A stretch of 64,000 bases of DNA from an uncultured Candidatus Saccharibacteria bacterium (GTDB taxonomy: Bacteria; Patescibacteriota; Minisyncoccia; Phycocordibacterales; UBA2100), in NCBI GenBank assembly GCA_964512835.1, contig CAZELA010000001.1, positions 297,372-361,371 on the forward strand. The letters run 5' to 3'. Position 1 is the stretch's first letter. The number at the start of each line of letters is the position of its first letter. This document shows, piece by piece, positions 11,852 through 30,053 of this stretch. The position numbers and the translations under genes are program-made. The notes under the pieces are model-generated. The model was not told the DNA's origin and made no database searches. It saw only the letters and a program-made list of their open reading frames with translations.

Positions 11852-11922
11852 TGGGGGATCGTCTAATGGTAGGACTTCAGGTTTTGGTCCTGAATATCAT
11901 GGTTCGAGTCCATGTCCCCCAG
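11852..11922 (+). tRNA. tRNA-Gln (anticodon UUG)
   Basis: Manual cloverleaf: acceptor TGGGGGA/TCCCCCA (7 Watson-Crick pairs, U1-A72, discriminator G73 as in bacterial tRNA-Gln), D-arm GTCT-AATGGTA-GGAC, anticodon arm TCAGG-TTTTGGT-CCTGA (U33, anticodon TTG), 4-nt variable loop, T-arm CATGG-TTCGAGT-CCATG. CCA not encoded. Confidence 0.9.
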
Positions 11923-23464: not shown

Positions 23465-23553
23465 AGATTGGTCGATTGGTTACGAACCTTACAATGGGCA
23501 CAGGCGGTGCACGTCCGGAGACCGGTGGAAAACACCAGTGATACAATTCTGGC

Positions 23554-23997
23554 GTGGAAAAGATTCGATACCAGAGTCCTAAAGAGGCAATTGAGCAGGA
23601 CGAGTTCCCTGAGCATTCATTCGATCTTATTGTCGATGGAAGGAAGATAGGTGCCGCAGATTTGGACTATTTTTCCAGACCAATTCCTATGTATCGTTTA
23701 TCCAGTCTTTACGTTGGGGAGCCAAGAGAAGGAGATATATATCGCGGTCAGGGGTACGGAAGTACGGTGATGGCACGGGTAGAGGCCTGGCTGCTCAAGA
23801 AGAAAAAGCCCGGAATTCTGCATGACAGAATCGATCAGAGTTCTCCGGCAAAAGGTATGTACGCGCGGCGTGGCTGGGTCCCGGTACCTGATATGGAGGA
23901 CGTGTATGTATACAATTGGCCCAAGGATGTTGATTTGTCGGTTCTAAAAGGTGCAGATCATCGATACGTGCCTCGTGAATTACGTCGACGTAAATGA
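23554..23997 (+). CDS. hypothetical protein (possible acetyltransferase-like)
   Basis: ORF only. GQGYGSTVMARVEAWLLKKKKPGI weakly GNAT-like. Confidence 0.35.
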   Translation: MEKIRYQSPKEAIEQDEFPEHSFDLIVDGRKIGAADLDYFSRPIPMYRLSSLYVGEPREGDIYRGQGYGSTVMARVEAWLLKKKKPGILHDRIDQSSPAKGMYARRGWVPVPDMEDVYVYNWPKDVDLSVLKGADHRYVPRELRRRK

Positions 23998-24071
23998 TAA
24001 AAACTCGGGCCGTGAATTTTTGTAGACACAAGAACTGCGGATAGGGGTAAATAATAAGAACGGTACATGCT

Positions 24072-24542
24072 ATGGATCTCGTGATCAGGAAAACTCGTAA
24101 TGGGCGCGGAATTTTTGCGGCGCGGGATTTTGACCCCGGAGAAACACTCTACGAAGTCACGGGCGCATTTGTAAGCGGGGACGAAGATGACGATGTTGAT
24201 GAATCGTTCCAATCGAACACATTTCGATATGACGCAGATCGCTATATTTCACCAGCAGGAGAGATTGGTGATTTTCAAAATCATTCCTGCGAGCCGAATG
24301 CCAAAGTCATAAAGCACGACGGTCGTCTGTATGTCGCCGCCGCACAAGCTATTGCACACGGTACGGAAGTGTTGATTGACTACTCGACAATCATTGCAGA
24401 CGACGATAGTTGGACCATGCGCTGTTCGTGCGGCACATCATCGTGTCGGGGCGTCATCGGGCAATTTAACTCGTTACCGAACACCGTACGTATTCGCTAT
24501 ATCACTACCGAAATGGTTCCCGAGTATATTCGCGCTCTTTGA
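24072..24542 (+). CDS. SET domain protein (lysine methyltransferase fold)
   Basis: NHSCEPN SET signature, ELxxDY-like VLIDYS, post-SET cysteine cluster CSCGTSSCRG. Confidence 0.75.
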   Translation: MDLVIRKTRNGRGIFAARDFDPGETLYEVTGAFVSGDEDDDVDESFQSNTFRYDADRYISPAGEIGDFQNHSCEPNAKVIKHDGRLYVAAAQAIAHGTEVLIDYSTIIADDDSWTMRCSCGTSSCRGVIGQFNSLPNTVRIRYITTEMVPEYIRAL

Positions 24543-24600
24543 GCACCCTCGTATCGCCGACGTCTGTTGCGCGAACGCAAACCGCGTGTATAAAAATAGT

Positions 24601-24840
24601 ATGAAAAAAACATTGAGCACAGGAGACGTTGTTGTTATCAGCTTAACCGTTATCTTTTTTGTCGCGGCCTTATTCTTAAAGGGGTTCACAAAGGATCTGT
24701 TACTCGAGATCGGCGTGCTCTTGGTTTCGATAAAGCTGATCATGTTTAATTACAAGCAGACGATGTTTGATACTGATGTCGTGCAGCGTCTCGACGCACT
24801 TCAAAAGGACGTTACTGAATTGAAGGGGCGAACGCGCTAG
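24601..24840 (+). CDS. small membrane protein
   Basis: ATG 24601, two TM helices. Confidence 0.4.
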   Translation: MKKTLSTGDVVVISLTVIFFVAALFLKGFTKDLLLEIGVLLVSIKLIMFNYKQTMFDTDVVQRLDALQKDVTELKGRTR

Positions 24841-24863
24841 GCTACTCGCGCACGCCCGTTCAT

Positions 24864-25187
24864 TTGCTAGAGTGCTGTATGTCTGACACGGCCATGTCCG
24901 GAGGAACTGCGCACAAGATACCCGCCGATTTGAAGAAGAAACTTGCATCCGACAAAGCGGCGCTTTCAAAATGGGAGAGTTTGACACCGCTCGCACGCAA
25001 CGAATGGATCTGTTGGGTTGTTTCGGTCAAGAAAGAGGAAACGCGAACTGAGCATCTGGATCGTGTACCTGTCGAGTTGAAAGAGGGTAAGCGCAGACCG
25101 TGCTGCTGGATCGGATGCATTCATCGTACGGACAAAGACATCAGCCCCTCAATCAAAGGTATTTTGGCAAAGCGTGCCAAGAAATAA
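24864..25187 (+). CDS. YdeI/OmpD-associated C-terminal-domain-like protein
   Basis: LARNEWICWVVSVKKEETRTEHLDRV parallels the C-terminal motif of the YdeI-family gene at 15951. Confidence 0.5.
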   Translation: MLECCMSDTAMSGGTAHKIPADLKKKLASDKAALSKWESLTPLARNEWICWVVSVKKEETRTEHLDRVPVELKEGKRRPCCWIGCIHRTDKDISPSIKGILAKRAKK

Positions 25188-25193
25188 AAAAAT

Positions 25194-25213
25194 CGCCGGC
25201 GCGAACGCCGGCG
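25194..25213 (-). terminator. terminator-like hairpin oriented for a minus-strand transcript
   Basis: CGCCGGCG-cgaa-CGCCGGCG hairpin. A-runs on both sides on plus strand, so U-run follows the hairpin only for a minus-strand transcript. Confidence 0.55.
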
Positions 25214-25229
25214 AAAAAAGTGGTCCAAG

Positions 25230-25560
25230 CTGACCTCCGACAGTCTGTGCCAGACGCGTTGCGTCGCCGACAGAACTTCCGTCTCCCGTGTGGGCGGTAT
25301 TTCAAGGTCGAATCAGACCCAGCCGAAACCGGATCCTCATTTTCTCCCGCCTATCCTACGCACATCAGGACGAGTCTTCAGTCCACCTCCGGAGATTCGA
25401 ACTCCGGGGCTGATCGCGGTTTCCCACTGAACAACAGGCCATTAGGGCTTCGAACCCCTACACCGCACGAGGGATGGCTCCCATCTAGGTGTTTGCCTGG
25501 ACCGCGCGAAGTATAGACGCACTGGCCACACTGTCAAAAAAGATGGACATGATAAAATAA
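25230..25560 (-). other. about 330-nt non-coding structured region with three tRNA T-arm-like motifs (unclassified RNA or tRNA relics)
   Basis: No ORF over 60 aa on the GC-rich segment. Minus-strand reading has GGGGTTCGAAGCCC, CCGGAGTTCGAATCTCCGG and GGGTCTGATTCGACC stem-loops 55 and 87 nt apart. No complete cloverleaf could be built. Confidence 0.3.
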
Positions 25561-25565
25561 ACCCA

Positions 25566-25656
25566 TATGTCAAAAGGAATGGATCGTAAAAAAGAGGCCA
25601 AAAAGCCCAAGAAAGAAAAGCCGAAAAAGGACAAAAGTCGTCCGTACAACAATTAA
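25566..25656 (+). CDS. small lysine-rich peptide (29 aa), speculative
   Basis: MSKGMDRKKEAKKPKKEKPKKDKSRPYNN. Below the 60-aa track cutoff, read from sequence. Confidence 0.3.
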
Positions 25657-25728
25657 TACCGAAGTGTCGACAGAAATACCGCCCCCACAGGGTGGTTTTC
25701 TTTTTTCGGGGCAGGTATACCATGAACA

Positions 25729-27957: not shown

Positions 27958-29502
27958 ATGCACAATCTCAAACGGGTTTTATTGGCTTTATTCGCTACGC
28001 TTCTCTTTGCTCCGGCATTGGCCTCTGCCGCAACCGCAAGCATACAGAATCTTTCAAGCGCTACGCCGCTCGCAAAAACGAGTGTTACGTTCAATATGTC
28101 GGTCTCAGGGTTCAGCTCGCCCTATTACACGATTGTCGACTCCTTTCCGAACTCCAGCATTAATTCCACCAATATGAATTTTGGCGGAAATTTCCAGTGG
28201 ACACCGAATGTTACCGATATTGGTACGCACACCCTTACGGTCACAACGAATGACAGTGACGGACACACGGTTGCCGTTACACAGCAGATAACGGTGCTCC
28301 CGCCGCCGTCAATCTCGATCCAAAATGTCTCGCCACAGAATTCCATCATGCCCGGTGCGGTCATGACGTTCACCGTCGCATCGCCGGGCTTCGTCAACCC
28401 CATATTTTCCCTGAGTGATTCTTTCGGAGGTTCTACCGTGTCAAATGCGTCCACGATGCAAAACGGTGCGTTCTCATGGACACCCGATACATCCCAAAAT
28501 GGCGAGCACGCAATCACGGTGTACGCGAGCGACTCGCAGGGTCACAGCGCGCAGGCTACTGTGCTGATGCGCGTAGGCTCCGGTCCGACGCTAACTGTGC
28601 CGTCAAACATAAATACAACCGTTGCTATCGGCCAATCAATTTCGTTTACCTTGAATCCGCTGAATTATTCACCGACCGGATTTACGGTATTCGACAAATT
28701 CTCGGGCACATCATCAATCACCAACAATGCGCTCACGACCAACGGTCTCTTCCAGTGGGTACCGACCGCGGTTGATGCCGGTCAGCACACGATCACATTC
28801 ACGGGACAGGTGGGTGCGTACGGACAGAGTGCGAGCACGAGCGTGGTTATCAATGTGCTCGGAGCGAACGGGCAACTCGTGACGCCGCCCACAACAACCT
28901 CCTCATCAGGCGCATCGGTGTCGAGTTTGCAGGCCCAGCTCGCGCTCTTGCAGGCGCAACTGAGCGGCGGTGCGCAATCCGCTCAGACTACGCGAACAAC
29001 GACCTCGGTCGGTAGCAGCTTCATCTTCACGCTTAATCTAAAACAGGGCTCAGAAAACGACGAAGTCACGGAACTTCAAAAGATTCTGAAGAAGCTCGGA
29101 TATCTCACCGTCGAGCCGAACGGATATTTCGGACCGTCGACTGTCGCCGCAGTAAAAAAGTTCCAGGCAGCCAAGGGTCTCACGCAGCTCGGCTCGGTAG
29201 GACCGGGAACGCGACTGGAGCTCAATTCGCTCACATCAGGTAGTCAGACTTCTGCGCCCGCTACTCCCGTAACCGGAAGCGGTTACGTATTTGATCACTT
29301 CATGGGACCTGGTGATGACGATTACACTGACGTGTACGAACTACAAAAGCGACTTGCATCGCTCGGGTTCCTTACCGCAACACCAAACGGCTTTTACGGA
29401 ACCGCTACCGAAGCAGCTGTCAAAAAATTCCAGACAAAACACGGACTCACTGCGACGGGATTTGTAGCCAAGGCAACGCGCGCCGCACTCAATTCGCAGT
29501 AA
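27958..29502 (+). CDS. secreted repeat protein: four Ig-like repeats plus two C-terminal peptidoglycan-binding (PG_binding_1-like) domains
   Basis: Signal peptide MHNLKRVLLALFATLLFAPALASA. Four about 90-aa repeats (FQWTPxVTDxGxHTxTV). Two LQKxLxxLGYLTxxPNGxFGxxTxxAVKKFQ modules. Confidence 0.65.
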   Translation: MHNLKRVLLALFATLLFAPALASAATASIQNLSSATPLAKTSVTFNMSVSGFSSPYYTIVDSFPNSSINSTNMNFGGNFQWTPNVTDIGTHTLTVTTNDSDGHTVAVTQQITVLPPPSISIQNVSPQNSIMPGAVMTFTVASPGFVNPIFSLSDSFGGSTVSNASTMQNGAFSWTPDTSQNGEHAITVYASDSQGHSAQATVLMRVGSGPTLTVPSNINTTVAIGQSISFTLNPLNYSPTGFTVFDKFSGTSSITNNALTTNGLFQWVPTAVDAGQHTITFTGQVGAYGQSASTSVVINVLGANGQLVTPPTTTSSSGASVSSLQAQLALLQAQLSGGAQSAQTTRTTTSVGSSFIFTLNLKQGSENDEVTELQKILKKLGYLTVEPNGYFGPSTVAAVKKFQAAKGLTQLGSVGPGTRLELNSLTSGSQTSAPATPVTGSGYVFDHFMGPGDDDYTDVYELQKRLASLGFLTATPNGFYGTATEAAVKKFQTKHGLTATGFVAKATRAALNSQ

Positions 29503-29507
29503 TACGT

Positions 29508-29690
29508 ATGGAGGACAAGGAGACGATAGAAGTCCTCACGAAGATGCTCACCGACCATTCGTTCAGTGATCGCGAGGAAGAAGCGATTAGGAACGCGATC
29601 GGTCTTATGGGTTGGACGAAACTGGTTGATGCATGGAAAGAGAATAAGAAAAAAGTACGCGATCGAAAATTGTCGGACCTCGATCTGTAA
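29508..29690 (+). CDS. small hypothetical protein
   Basis: 60-aa ORF directly after the upstream stop. Confidence 0.3.
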   Translation: MEDKETIEVLTKMLTDHSFSDREEEAIRNAIGLMGWTKLVDAWKENKKKVRDRKLSDLDL

Positions 29691-29749
29691 GTGGCATTCG
29701 GTCTTTTTTCGCTGTACTCTTGCAGAGGACTCAAACCGAGGGGAGCACA

Positions 29750-29926
29750 ATGACTCAGATCGCAGTCCAGGTTGAAGCGACAAAGGCCACGTTCACCGGT
29801 CGCTGCCAAAAGTGCGGCAGTGCCAATATGTGGAGCGAGGGCAACAAGTTCGGATGTGACTCCTGCGGTGCGCAGTACTGCACCGAAGATTCGCAGCCGA
29901 TCCATCGGCTTGCGCGCAGGGATTGA
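29750..29926 (+). CDS. small zinc-ribbon protein
   Basis: CQKCGS ... CDSCGAQYC. Start at MTQIAVQ. Confidence 0.35.
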   Translation: MTQIAVQVEATKATFTGRCQKCGSANMWSEGNKFGCDSCGAQYCTEDSQPIHRLARRD

Positions 29927-29942
29927 TCTCTGGTAAAGGCAA

Positions 29943-29976
29943 GAACCGGGCAGCGATGCCCGGTTCGTCTTTTTGG
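29943..29976 (+). terminator. rho-independent terminator
   Basis: GAACCGGGC-agcgat-GCCCGGTTC then GTCTTTTTGG. Confidence 0.75.
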
Positions 29977-30053
29977 TTGTGAGACAATACCGTCGATATC
30001 GATGAGCATACTGCTCGATATGTGTATCAAACCTGATTTATAATGCAGGCATC

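Follow-up and report, generated by a model that had tools for sequence, protein, structure and literature searches.

What kind of element lies at 25230–25560 in a 64,000-nucleotide (nt) stretch of DNA from an uncultured Candidatus Saccharibacteria bacterium (assembly GCA_964512835.1, contig CAZELA010000001.1), where the minus strand carries hairpins resembling the T-arm of transfer RNA (tRNA)? The whole of this stretch is called the window here; all coordinates refer to it, and the RNA gene described below is read on the minus strand. A first-pass annotation had offered decayed tandem tRNA genes, the attachment (att) side of an accessory region or an unclassified structured RNA, with a hint of a transfer-messenger RNA (tmRNA). 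The analysis reported here indicates with high confidence that the locus encodes a genuine structured RNA belonging to a family not described before, and the RNA is apparently a new and rare class of the Patescibacteria. Few large bacterial RNAs combine many covarying helices with pseudoknots and tertiary-contact motifs, and past cases turned out to be ribozymes, ribonucleoprotein cores or unusual regulators. The Patescibacteria, or candidate phyla radiation, are uncultured bacteria with reduced genomes, and to our knowledge their non-coding RNA is almost unexplored.

The coding potential and transcription signals of the locus were examined on both strands. No credible open reading frame (ORF) was found on either strand at 25215–25510, where the long ORFs cross the terminator or begin upstream of the promoter, and the earlier description of the stretch as non-coding was borne out. 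A sigma-70-type promoter near consensus (TTGACA-16 nt-TATACT, 11/12 consensus matches) is located on the minus strand at 25537–25510, and its spacing predicts a transcription start at about G25503, which is base 1 of the closing helix P1. The hairpin with a U-run that had been assigned to a minus-strand transcript was identified as a strong intrinsic terminator, with a stem of 9 base pairs (bp) at 25214–25193, 8 of them G-C, followed by UUUUUUU (UCGCCGGCG-UUCG-CGCCGGCGA, 25187–25214 including the U-run). The predicted transcript extends from about 25503 to 25187 and contains an RNA body of approximately 285 nt (25503–25218) plus the terminator hairpin, the 3' strand of P1 (25230–25222) standing just ahead of the terminator. 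The earlier limits of 25230–25560 hold the promoter, whereas the unit runs on beyond them, the body to 25218 and the terminator down to 25187.

Three T-arm-like hairpins had been reported on the minus strand, and two of these were found to be canonical. T1 (GGGG-UUCGAAG-CCCU, 25458–25444) and T2 (CCGGAG-UUCGAAU-CUCCGG, 25407–25389) both have the G-closed 7-nt UUCRANY-C loop on a stem that is expected of a T-loop. The third (GGGUCUGAUUCGACC, 25321–25307) has a 6-nt loop, fails the T-arm test and is unconserved, the homologues described below reading GGAGUCG at this place; in the fold supported by covariation the segment provides the 3' strand of the P7 apical hairpin, the GA of a predicted kink-turn and the 3' strand of P6. 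The spacings between the hairpins, given previously as 55 and 87 nt, are 53 and 88 nt from loop to loop. The bare loop GTTCRANNC occurs in the window at chance frequency (29 observed vs 27.5 expected), while a search for G-UUCRANN-C hairpins with a stem of at least 4 bp on both strands of the 64 kb (128 kb searched) gave three, tRNA-Gln, T1 and T2, against a Markov expectation of 1.47. The position of T1 and T2 on one strand, 53 nt apart, indicates that the pair is not a product of chance.

Homologues were sought in 241 million metagenome records using a pattern restricted to the invariant-looking loops (the T1 loop, GGAAAC and the T2 loop). The scan returned 66 loci, three of which proved to be true homologues by nhmmer, with E-values of 2.5e-29 (L135), 6.7e-21 (L146) and 2.3e-18 (L153). 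Pairwise identity among the four lineages, the window included, is 56–65%. L135, L146 and L153 all start with GGUUCARGCAAACA and end with GYUUGRACY and two further bases, followed by a hairpin of their own that is terminator-like in L146 and L135, and in the aligned members homology stops precisely at both ends of the RNA. When a covariance model was built from the 5' domain, the four members scored 134–149 bits and everything else 26 bits or less. The weak matches to this model at L182, L186, L163, L188 and L184 (16–26 bits) were rejected as tRNA 3' halves or chance matches, lacking helix Pa and the other helices. None of the three sense frames contains an open frame conserved across the four lineages, and the translated sense frames gave no matches when used as protein queries. 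An antisense ORF compared with 1.84 billion protein representatives matched three long repeat proteins only, which were considered irrelevant.

The secondary structure was derived from plain MAFFT alignments of the full length (A2) and of the 5' domain (A4), neither of them fitted to a structure. RNAalifold predicted 78 pairs, 35 of which had compensatory changes. The structure was then curated by enumerating the helices that pair in every sequence and counting their pairs, which gave 77 pairs in 13 helices with 95.5% of cells paired, compared with 34–50% in slid controls. Changes on both sides were found at 38 of these pairs, a number reached by none of 500 shuffles. The 5' domain taken separately contains 30 pairs with 98% of cells paired (35–50% in slid controls), and 17 of the 30 are changed on both sides, again reached in 0/500 shuffles. 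Three metagenomic homologues at 56–65% identity, with compensatory changes and a unit that has its own promoter and terminator, thus support the unclassified structured RNA that the first-pass annotation had listed among its options.

The same measurements bear on the proposal that the locus is a tandem of decayed tRNA genes, or of tRNA 3' halves left behind as att remnants by integration and excision. T-arm-like hairpins are indeed present, ARAGORN with its thresholds lowered to 80% proposes a poor 97-nt 'tRNA-His' enclosing T2, and real att-type duplications of tRNA 3' ends are superficially alike, for example that at locus L063. Decay would not be expected, however, to leave 13 helices maintained by compensatory change at this level of divergence, or T-loops that are invariant save at R57 and position 60 above stems that covary. 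The RNA also has its own promoter and terminator, no intact tRNA or integrase gene neighbours it, its T-arms are unlike that of tRNA-Gln, and homology stops at its ends, which disagrees with an att side of an accessory region. Both forms of this proposal are therefore considered highly improbable.

The curated fold consists of two domains that spring from a three-way junction, with P1 joining both ends of the RNA. P1, the first helix of the pair count, is formed by GGUCCAGGC (25495–25503) and GCUUGGACC (25222–25230), the latter followed by AC; its 9 bp are paired in 100% of cells, and one C-G pair changes to U-A among the members with U-G as an intermediate. An invariant AAA linker (25492–25494), part of the invariant GCAAACA columns, connects P1 to P2. 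The tRNA-like 5' domain (25384–25491) is closed by P2, in which CACCU (25491–25487) pairs with AGGUG (25388–25384); all cells of these 5 bp are paired and three pairs have changed on both sides. The 3' strand of P2 abuts T2 with no base between them, and the two would form an 11-bp stack similar to that of an acceptor stem and T-arm.

Within the 5' domain the D-arm position is taken by hairpin S1 (25469–25485), where GAUGG (25485–25481) pairs with CCCUC (25473–25469) in 87.5% of cells and three pairs are changed on both sides. The loop of S1 (25478–25474) pairs with 25442–25438, just 3' of T1, to form helix Pa, which is 100% paired and reads GCCAU/AUGGC in the window and GCUGU/ACAGC in the three homologues. 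S1 and Pa together make an H-type pseudoknot, with T1 inside its long loop. The T1 hairpin (25444–25458) has the loop UUCRAAK in all members, and a G-to-A change at the purine position arose twice, in L153 and in the sister genome L012. This change is tolerated by a T-loop and would not be by an anticodon, indicating that the central loop follows the T-loop consensus. At the position of the long variable arm of tRNA there is a long GAAA-capped hairpin (GGGAAAC, 25409–25435) of 10 bp, 100% paired, with seven pairs changed on both sides and an invariant tetraloop. The canonical T-arm T2 (25389–25407) follows, with the invariant loop GUUCGAAUC and four stem pairs changed on both sides. The plus-strand sequence 'GGGGCTGAT' that had been likened to a tmRNA 5' end corresponds, on the opposite strand, to the place where the GAAA arm joins T2.

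The 3' domain (25232–25383) is closed by P3 (25383–25374 with 25241–25232), which holds a conserved 3x3 GAA/GGA internal loop. From it extends a long arm, P4-P5-P6-P7 (25282–25372, helices 10–13 of the pair count), whose P4/P5 region carries the conserved bulge UAGNAUA at 25360–25352. P5 reads GGCGG/CCGCC in the window and GAUGG/CCAUC in the other members. P6 is a 3-bp stem, P7 is an apical UUCG-type hairpin (25335–25316) with six pairs changed on both sides, and a kink-turn-like motif is placed between these two covarying helices. Its parts are a C-stem GAA/UUC (25344–25342 with 25312–25310), the bulge and GA (25341–25336) and the opposite GA (25315–25313). The consensus GAC-NNN-GAR...KGA-GUC, with GAA...UUC in the window, fits all four lineages by sequence, the geometry being a prediction. 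The remaining element, hairpin P8 (25242–25281), is unconserved in sequence and was found as a long hairpin in every member when the four lineages were folded separately.

The locus was compared with the 4227 families of Rfam 15, both at gathering thresholds and at E<=10. At gathering thresholds the window contained only tRNA-Gln, and neither RNase P, tmRNA nor any other family was detected at the locus; ARAGORN at default settings likewise called tRNA-Gln at 11852 only, with no tRNA or tmRNA at the RNA gene. At E<=10 the only matches on an 801-nt stretch were small-RNA models that matched the terminator, and the tRNA model RF00005 was not among them. The first-pass annotation had named a clean tRNA or tmRNA call as grounds for abandoning its reading, and covariance models gave no such call. 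Relaxing ARAGORN to 80% thresholds produced the tRNA-His described above, which has mismatched stems, and nonsensical permuted tmRNAs; these calls were rejected. The Rfam tmRNA model matched the homologues L135 and L153 only, at 9–17 bits (best scores 17 bits and 8.8–12 bits; gathering threshold 47) and through the T-arm alone, and the homologues gave nothing beyond these matches. The models for YrlA and the T-box matched neither the RNA of the window nor its homologues, and no published description of the family was found in a literature search.

A strongly diverged form of an essential RNA, namely RNase P RNA, tmRNA, signal recognition particle (SRP) RNA or 6S RNA, would be one way to account for the absence of a match, and there is precedent: in 10 of 35 circularised genomes of the candidate phyla radiation, RNase P RNAs were detectable only below noise cut-offs (Lui et al., PMC8172020). 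The size of about 285 nt and the closing helix P1 would suit RNase P RNA, and the weak matches on L135 and L153 would suit tmRNA. Against RNase P, however, no counterpart of P4, CR-I (GGAAAGUCC) or CR-IV/V was visible by eye in the full alignment, the sole GGGAAAC caps a hairpin of 10 covarying pairs, and RF00010 and RF00011 gave no match to stretches of 801, 701 and 371 nt when the cut-off was relaxed to E<=10. The tmRNA hint failed on similar grounds: a tag ORF, a G3-U70 pair and a CCA end are all missing, the tRNA-like domain is internal, and the RNA region of the window has no Rfam tmRNA match. An essential RNA should also not be missing from relatives or so rare in metagenomes, as described below, and a diverged essential RNA is accordingly regarded as very unlikely. 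Permuted tmRNA, RNase P RNA, SRP RNA and 6S RNA were each rejected for failing a defining feature, as were a group I intron in a tRNA, a selenocysteine tRNA and the guide RNAs of IscB/TnpB.

The distribution of the RNA was examined in close relatives. At 18 loci of the same species it is identical or nearly so. The sister genome L012 (GCA_964633425.1, labelled uncultured Candidatus Saccharibacteria) has three differences in the RNA, all compatible with the structure: A-U to G-U in T2, G-U to G-C in T1, and G to A at the purine of the T1 loop. Between 23500 and 25400 the window and L012 do not differ (100% identity), in contrast to approximately 87% identity elsewhere in the region. The GNAT, SET and OmdA genes lie within this identical block of about 1.9 kb, as does half of the RNA gene, and a second 100% identical block is present at 29500–30000; from the sequence, such blocks suggest recent recombination between the two lineages. 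In four farther relatives, in which DUF1761 is 81–87% identical, neither the OmdA-DUF1761 junction nor the 10 kb on either side contains the RNA, and the gap between these two genes is 20–45 bp. Its absence from this junction makes the RNA gene a lineage-specific occupant of the site.

The RNA is also absent beside the homologues of the 176-residue protein gene that neighbours it in L146, and overall it is missing at the corresponding sites in six related or syntenic genomes. A three-loop pattern run against reference genomes brought back the sister genome (L046, the same contig as L012) and otherwise about 80 chance or tRNA-cluster matches. With the RNA missing at these sites in the six genomes and only three copies among the 241 million metagenome records, an accessory rather than a housekeeping role is indicated, and provisionally it looks like a rare accessory RNA.

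The genes next to the RNA differ from one context to another. In the window the flanking genes encode NUDIX, GNAT, CYTH, DUF1697, SET, OmdA, DUF1761 and MsrA proteins, and the named homologues assign the organism to the Patescibacteria. Across the four contexts no protein neighbour is common to all, the neighbours including Trp-repressor-like, FMN reductase, PaaX-like and uncharacterised proteins, and the next gene past the terminator is convergent in 4/4. The convergent downstream genes and the lack of a shared neighbour argue that the RNA acts in trans. They also weigh on the alternative of a cis-acting leader, a riboswitch or T-box-like attenuator that would control a downstream gene through the terminator. 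The RNA does end in an intrinsic terminator, and it combines a kink-turn-like motif with T-loops as T-box leaders do, but the gene past the terminator lies on the opposite strand at all four loci, there is no conserved alternative antiterminator pairing, and neither a T-box sequence nor an Rfam match was found. A leader function of this type is hardly credible.

A second alternative is that the RNA belongs to a mobile or defence-type accessory module, or is a ribozyme, with its protein partner or target encoded elsewhere. Several observations are consistent with this: at this site the RNA occurs in this species and the sister genome only and is absent from the syntenic junction of relatives, the three other contexts are unrelated, small accessory genes (NUDIX, GNAT, SET, OmdA, DUF1761) surround it, it is rare among the metagenome records, and its structural complexity is typical of catalytic RNAs. 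Nevertheless, none of the four contexts has an adjacent transposase, integrase, reverse transcriptase, nuclease or toxin gene, and neither a target-site duplication nor flanking repeats that would define an element were found, homology stopping at the ends of the RNA. Pattern scans of IMG/VR viral contigs gave chance matches or nothing and blastn against GenBank phages found no copy, so a viral or phage origin was rejected; a guide RNA of a mobile nuclease or recombinase was rejected as no such gene adjoins the RNA. Membership of a mobile or defence-type module, or catalysis, is accordingly kept as a minor possibility.

The surroundings of the RNA gene contain other features. At locus L197 (4302–4973) an IS200/IS605-type Y1 transposase gene adjoins a homologue of the 176-residue protein that neighbours the RNA in L146. 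Genes for OmdA, DUF2975 and DUF1697 are present near this transposase, and the same small accessory genes are reshuffled across these Patescibacteria genomes. In the window a lysine-rich ORF of 29 codons (MSKGMDRKKEAKKPKKEKPKKDKSRPYNN) lies on the plus strand at 25568–25657, between the RNA gene and DUF1761, with its own terminator at 25678–25696. Its promoter is back to back with that of the RNA, the TTGACA -35 box of the minus strand overlapping the CTGTCA -35 box of the plus strand in a palindrome at 25531–25537; the plus-strand promoter is the weaker of the two. The ORF has approximately 80–84% nucleotide identity in relatives and is annotated as a gene in several metagenomes. In the window it is upstream of DUF1761 whereas in relatives it is 3' of that gene: a match was found just 3' of DUF1761 in 3/4 of the farther relatives, and none in the fourth, L108, where the contig stops about 200 nt past DUF1761. 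A 19-nt inverted similarity (17/19) relates 25285–25303 to 25673–25691, so that GAAAUACCGCCCACACGGG, from J6/5-P5-P4 of the RNA, reappears as GAAATACCGCCCCCACAGG in the plus-strand terminator of the 29-codon ORF. There are two copies only in the window, against a chance expectation of 0.05.

Some of the matches returned by the reference-genome scan have arrangements of their own. At L063 (7182–7330, Candidatus Moraniibacteriota) the 3' half of a tRNA-Ala recurs behind it in a near-copy that ends in CCA, a classic mark of integration into a tRNA gene; a true att-type remnant looks like this, and the RNA gene differs from it. At approximately 5000–5260 of L097 (Candidatus Saccharibacteria RIFCSPHIGHO2_12_FULL_47_17) a 9-bp helix, UCCCGCACC...GGUGCGGGA, encloses a complete tRNA-Thr. 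This helix interrupts an apparent second tRNA-like sequence with matching acceptor halves, GCCACCU...AGGUGGC-U-CCA, and the sequence could represent nested or duplicated tRNAs, or else an intervening sequence of an unusual kind. At 1235–1500 of L099 (Candidatus Peribacteria) a long TCGAA-rich array of short tandem repeats (GGAATCTCGAAGCTCGAATCT...) is followed by an imperfect inverted counterpart (ATTCGACATTCCA...).

The function of the RNA can be approached from its architecture. The best joint explanation, given about an even chance of being right as a whole, is a stand-alone structured-RNA gene of an unmatched family whose product is a trans-acting, tRNA-mimicking ribonucleoprotein scaffold. 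Taken separately, the functional part, tRNA mimicry or a ribonucleoprotein scaffold, is a tentative proposal, judged less likely than not. The RNA would act in trans as a folded scaffold, in which the tRNA-like elbow would be offered to a protein or RNA whose usual target is the acceptor/T-arm half of tRNA while the predicted kink-turn arm might bind a second partner, following a logic like that of the bacterial Y RNAs (YrlA).

An alternative assigns the same modules to the binding of tRNA itself: the T-loops and kink-turn would dock the elbow of a real tRNA, and the RNA would sense, sequester or chaperone it in trans. Two invariant T-loops within one compact domain and a kink-turn that agrees with the consensus by its bases are consistent with this, and T-box leaders combine the same modules. 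The T-loops of T-boxes and RNase P, however, are interdigitated pentanucleotide modules and not full G-UUCRAAU-C hairpins on an acceptor-like stem, the conserved single strands contain no specifier-like element or UGGN element that would bind NCCA, and Rfam gave no T-box match. The binding of tRNA in this manner is considered unlikely, and similarly low odds are given to the broader idea that the double T-loop domain works on tRNA or the translation apparatus, as a free trans counterpart of the T-box or of the RNase P specificity domain, or as a ribozyme.

Several observations weigh against the structured RNA and the scaffold proposed here. The covariation counts come from four independent lineages and hence from few evolutionary events, and the fold of the sequence taken singly has no exceptional stability (z = -1.53). 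In the homologues, boxes resembling a promoter can be made out by eye yet failed the consensus scan. The conservation of the RNA in L012 is uninformative about constraint owing to the 100% identical recombination block at 23500–25400, and the three-loop scan of reference genomes was too strict because it included the unconserved third loop, which makes the distribution among reference genomes provisional. The Pfam scan of 22 ORFs of the window detected neither a Ro60/TROVE nor an L7Ae-type protein, and the neighbours of the three homologues contain no TROVE domain either; the scaffold or mimic function was proposed solely from motif resemblance, with no partner protein linked to it. The 285-nt RNA with its tRNA-like elbow, two T-loops and kink-turn-like motif is in any case a concrete object for the study of tRNA mimicry in Patescibacteria, and it can be synthesised and probed without culturing the host.

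When the RNA was compared with known systems, the 5' domain matched a class II tRNA in the order of its parts: an acceptor-like stem, a hairpin at the D position, a central arm with a 7-nt loop, a long extra arm and a T-arm that has the UUCRANY consensus and abuts the 3' acceptor strand. It differs in that P2 has 5 bp rather than 7, AAA and P1 come ahead of its 5' strand and P3 follows directly on its 3' strand, leaving no free NCCA. The loop at the anticodon position is a T-loop (UUCGAAG in the window, UUCAAAG in L012), the loop at the D position is tied into a pseudoknot, and neither ARAGORN nor the Rfam tRNA model makes a call. With tmRNA the RNA shares the T-arm consensus, which is the only resemblance detected by Rfam, as well as pseudoknots and a comparable size. 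The tRNA-like domain of tmRNA is made from the termini or is permuted, whereas here it is internal and in standard order, and the terminal helix has U3-A in place of G3-U70, with neither CCA nor a tag ORF.

T-box Stem I and the RNase P specificity domain combine T-loop motifs with a kink-turn in one RNA, to which the T-loops and the kink-turn-like motif here would correspond. These systems, a cis leader and a ribozyme subunit respectively, bind the tRNA elbow through their T-loops, while the present RNA lacks a regulated downstream gene, a T-box sequence and the P4 catalytic core. The raiA motif/ModT, OLE, ROOL, GOLLD and HEARO RNAs are alike in being independently transcribed and intricate, with covariation-supported structures and an undefined biochemical role; no similarity to them in sequence or by covariance model was found, and the present RNA occurs in a different phylum, the Patescibacteria, and so far appears much rarer. 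The nearest system in concept is YrlA, the partner of the Ro60 orthologue Rsr. YrlA is approximately 100–130 nt long, in contrast to about 285 nt here, where a second T-loop, a pseudoknot, the GAAA arm and a 3' domain with a kink-turn-like motif are added. The closing helix of the present RNA is without the bulged Ro-binding signature, the Rfam YrlA model does not match, and a TROVE/Rsr gene was seen neither among the 22 ORFs of the window scanned against Pfam nor next to the homologues. The likeness is architectural only, and consists of a stand-alone non-coding RNA whose ends pair in a closing stem and whose T-arm, with GUUCGAAUC, is stacked on an acceptor-like stem; in YrlA the tRNA-like module engages proteins that recognise tRNA while tethering Ro60.

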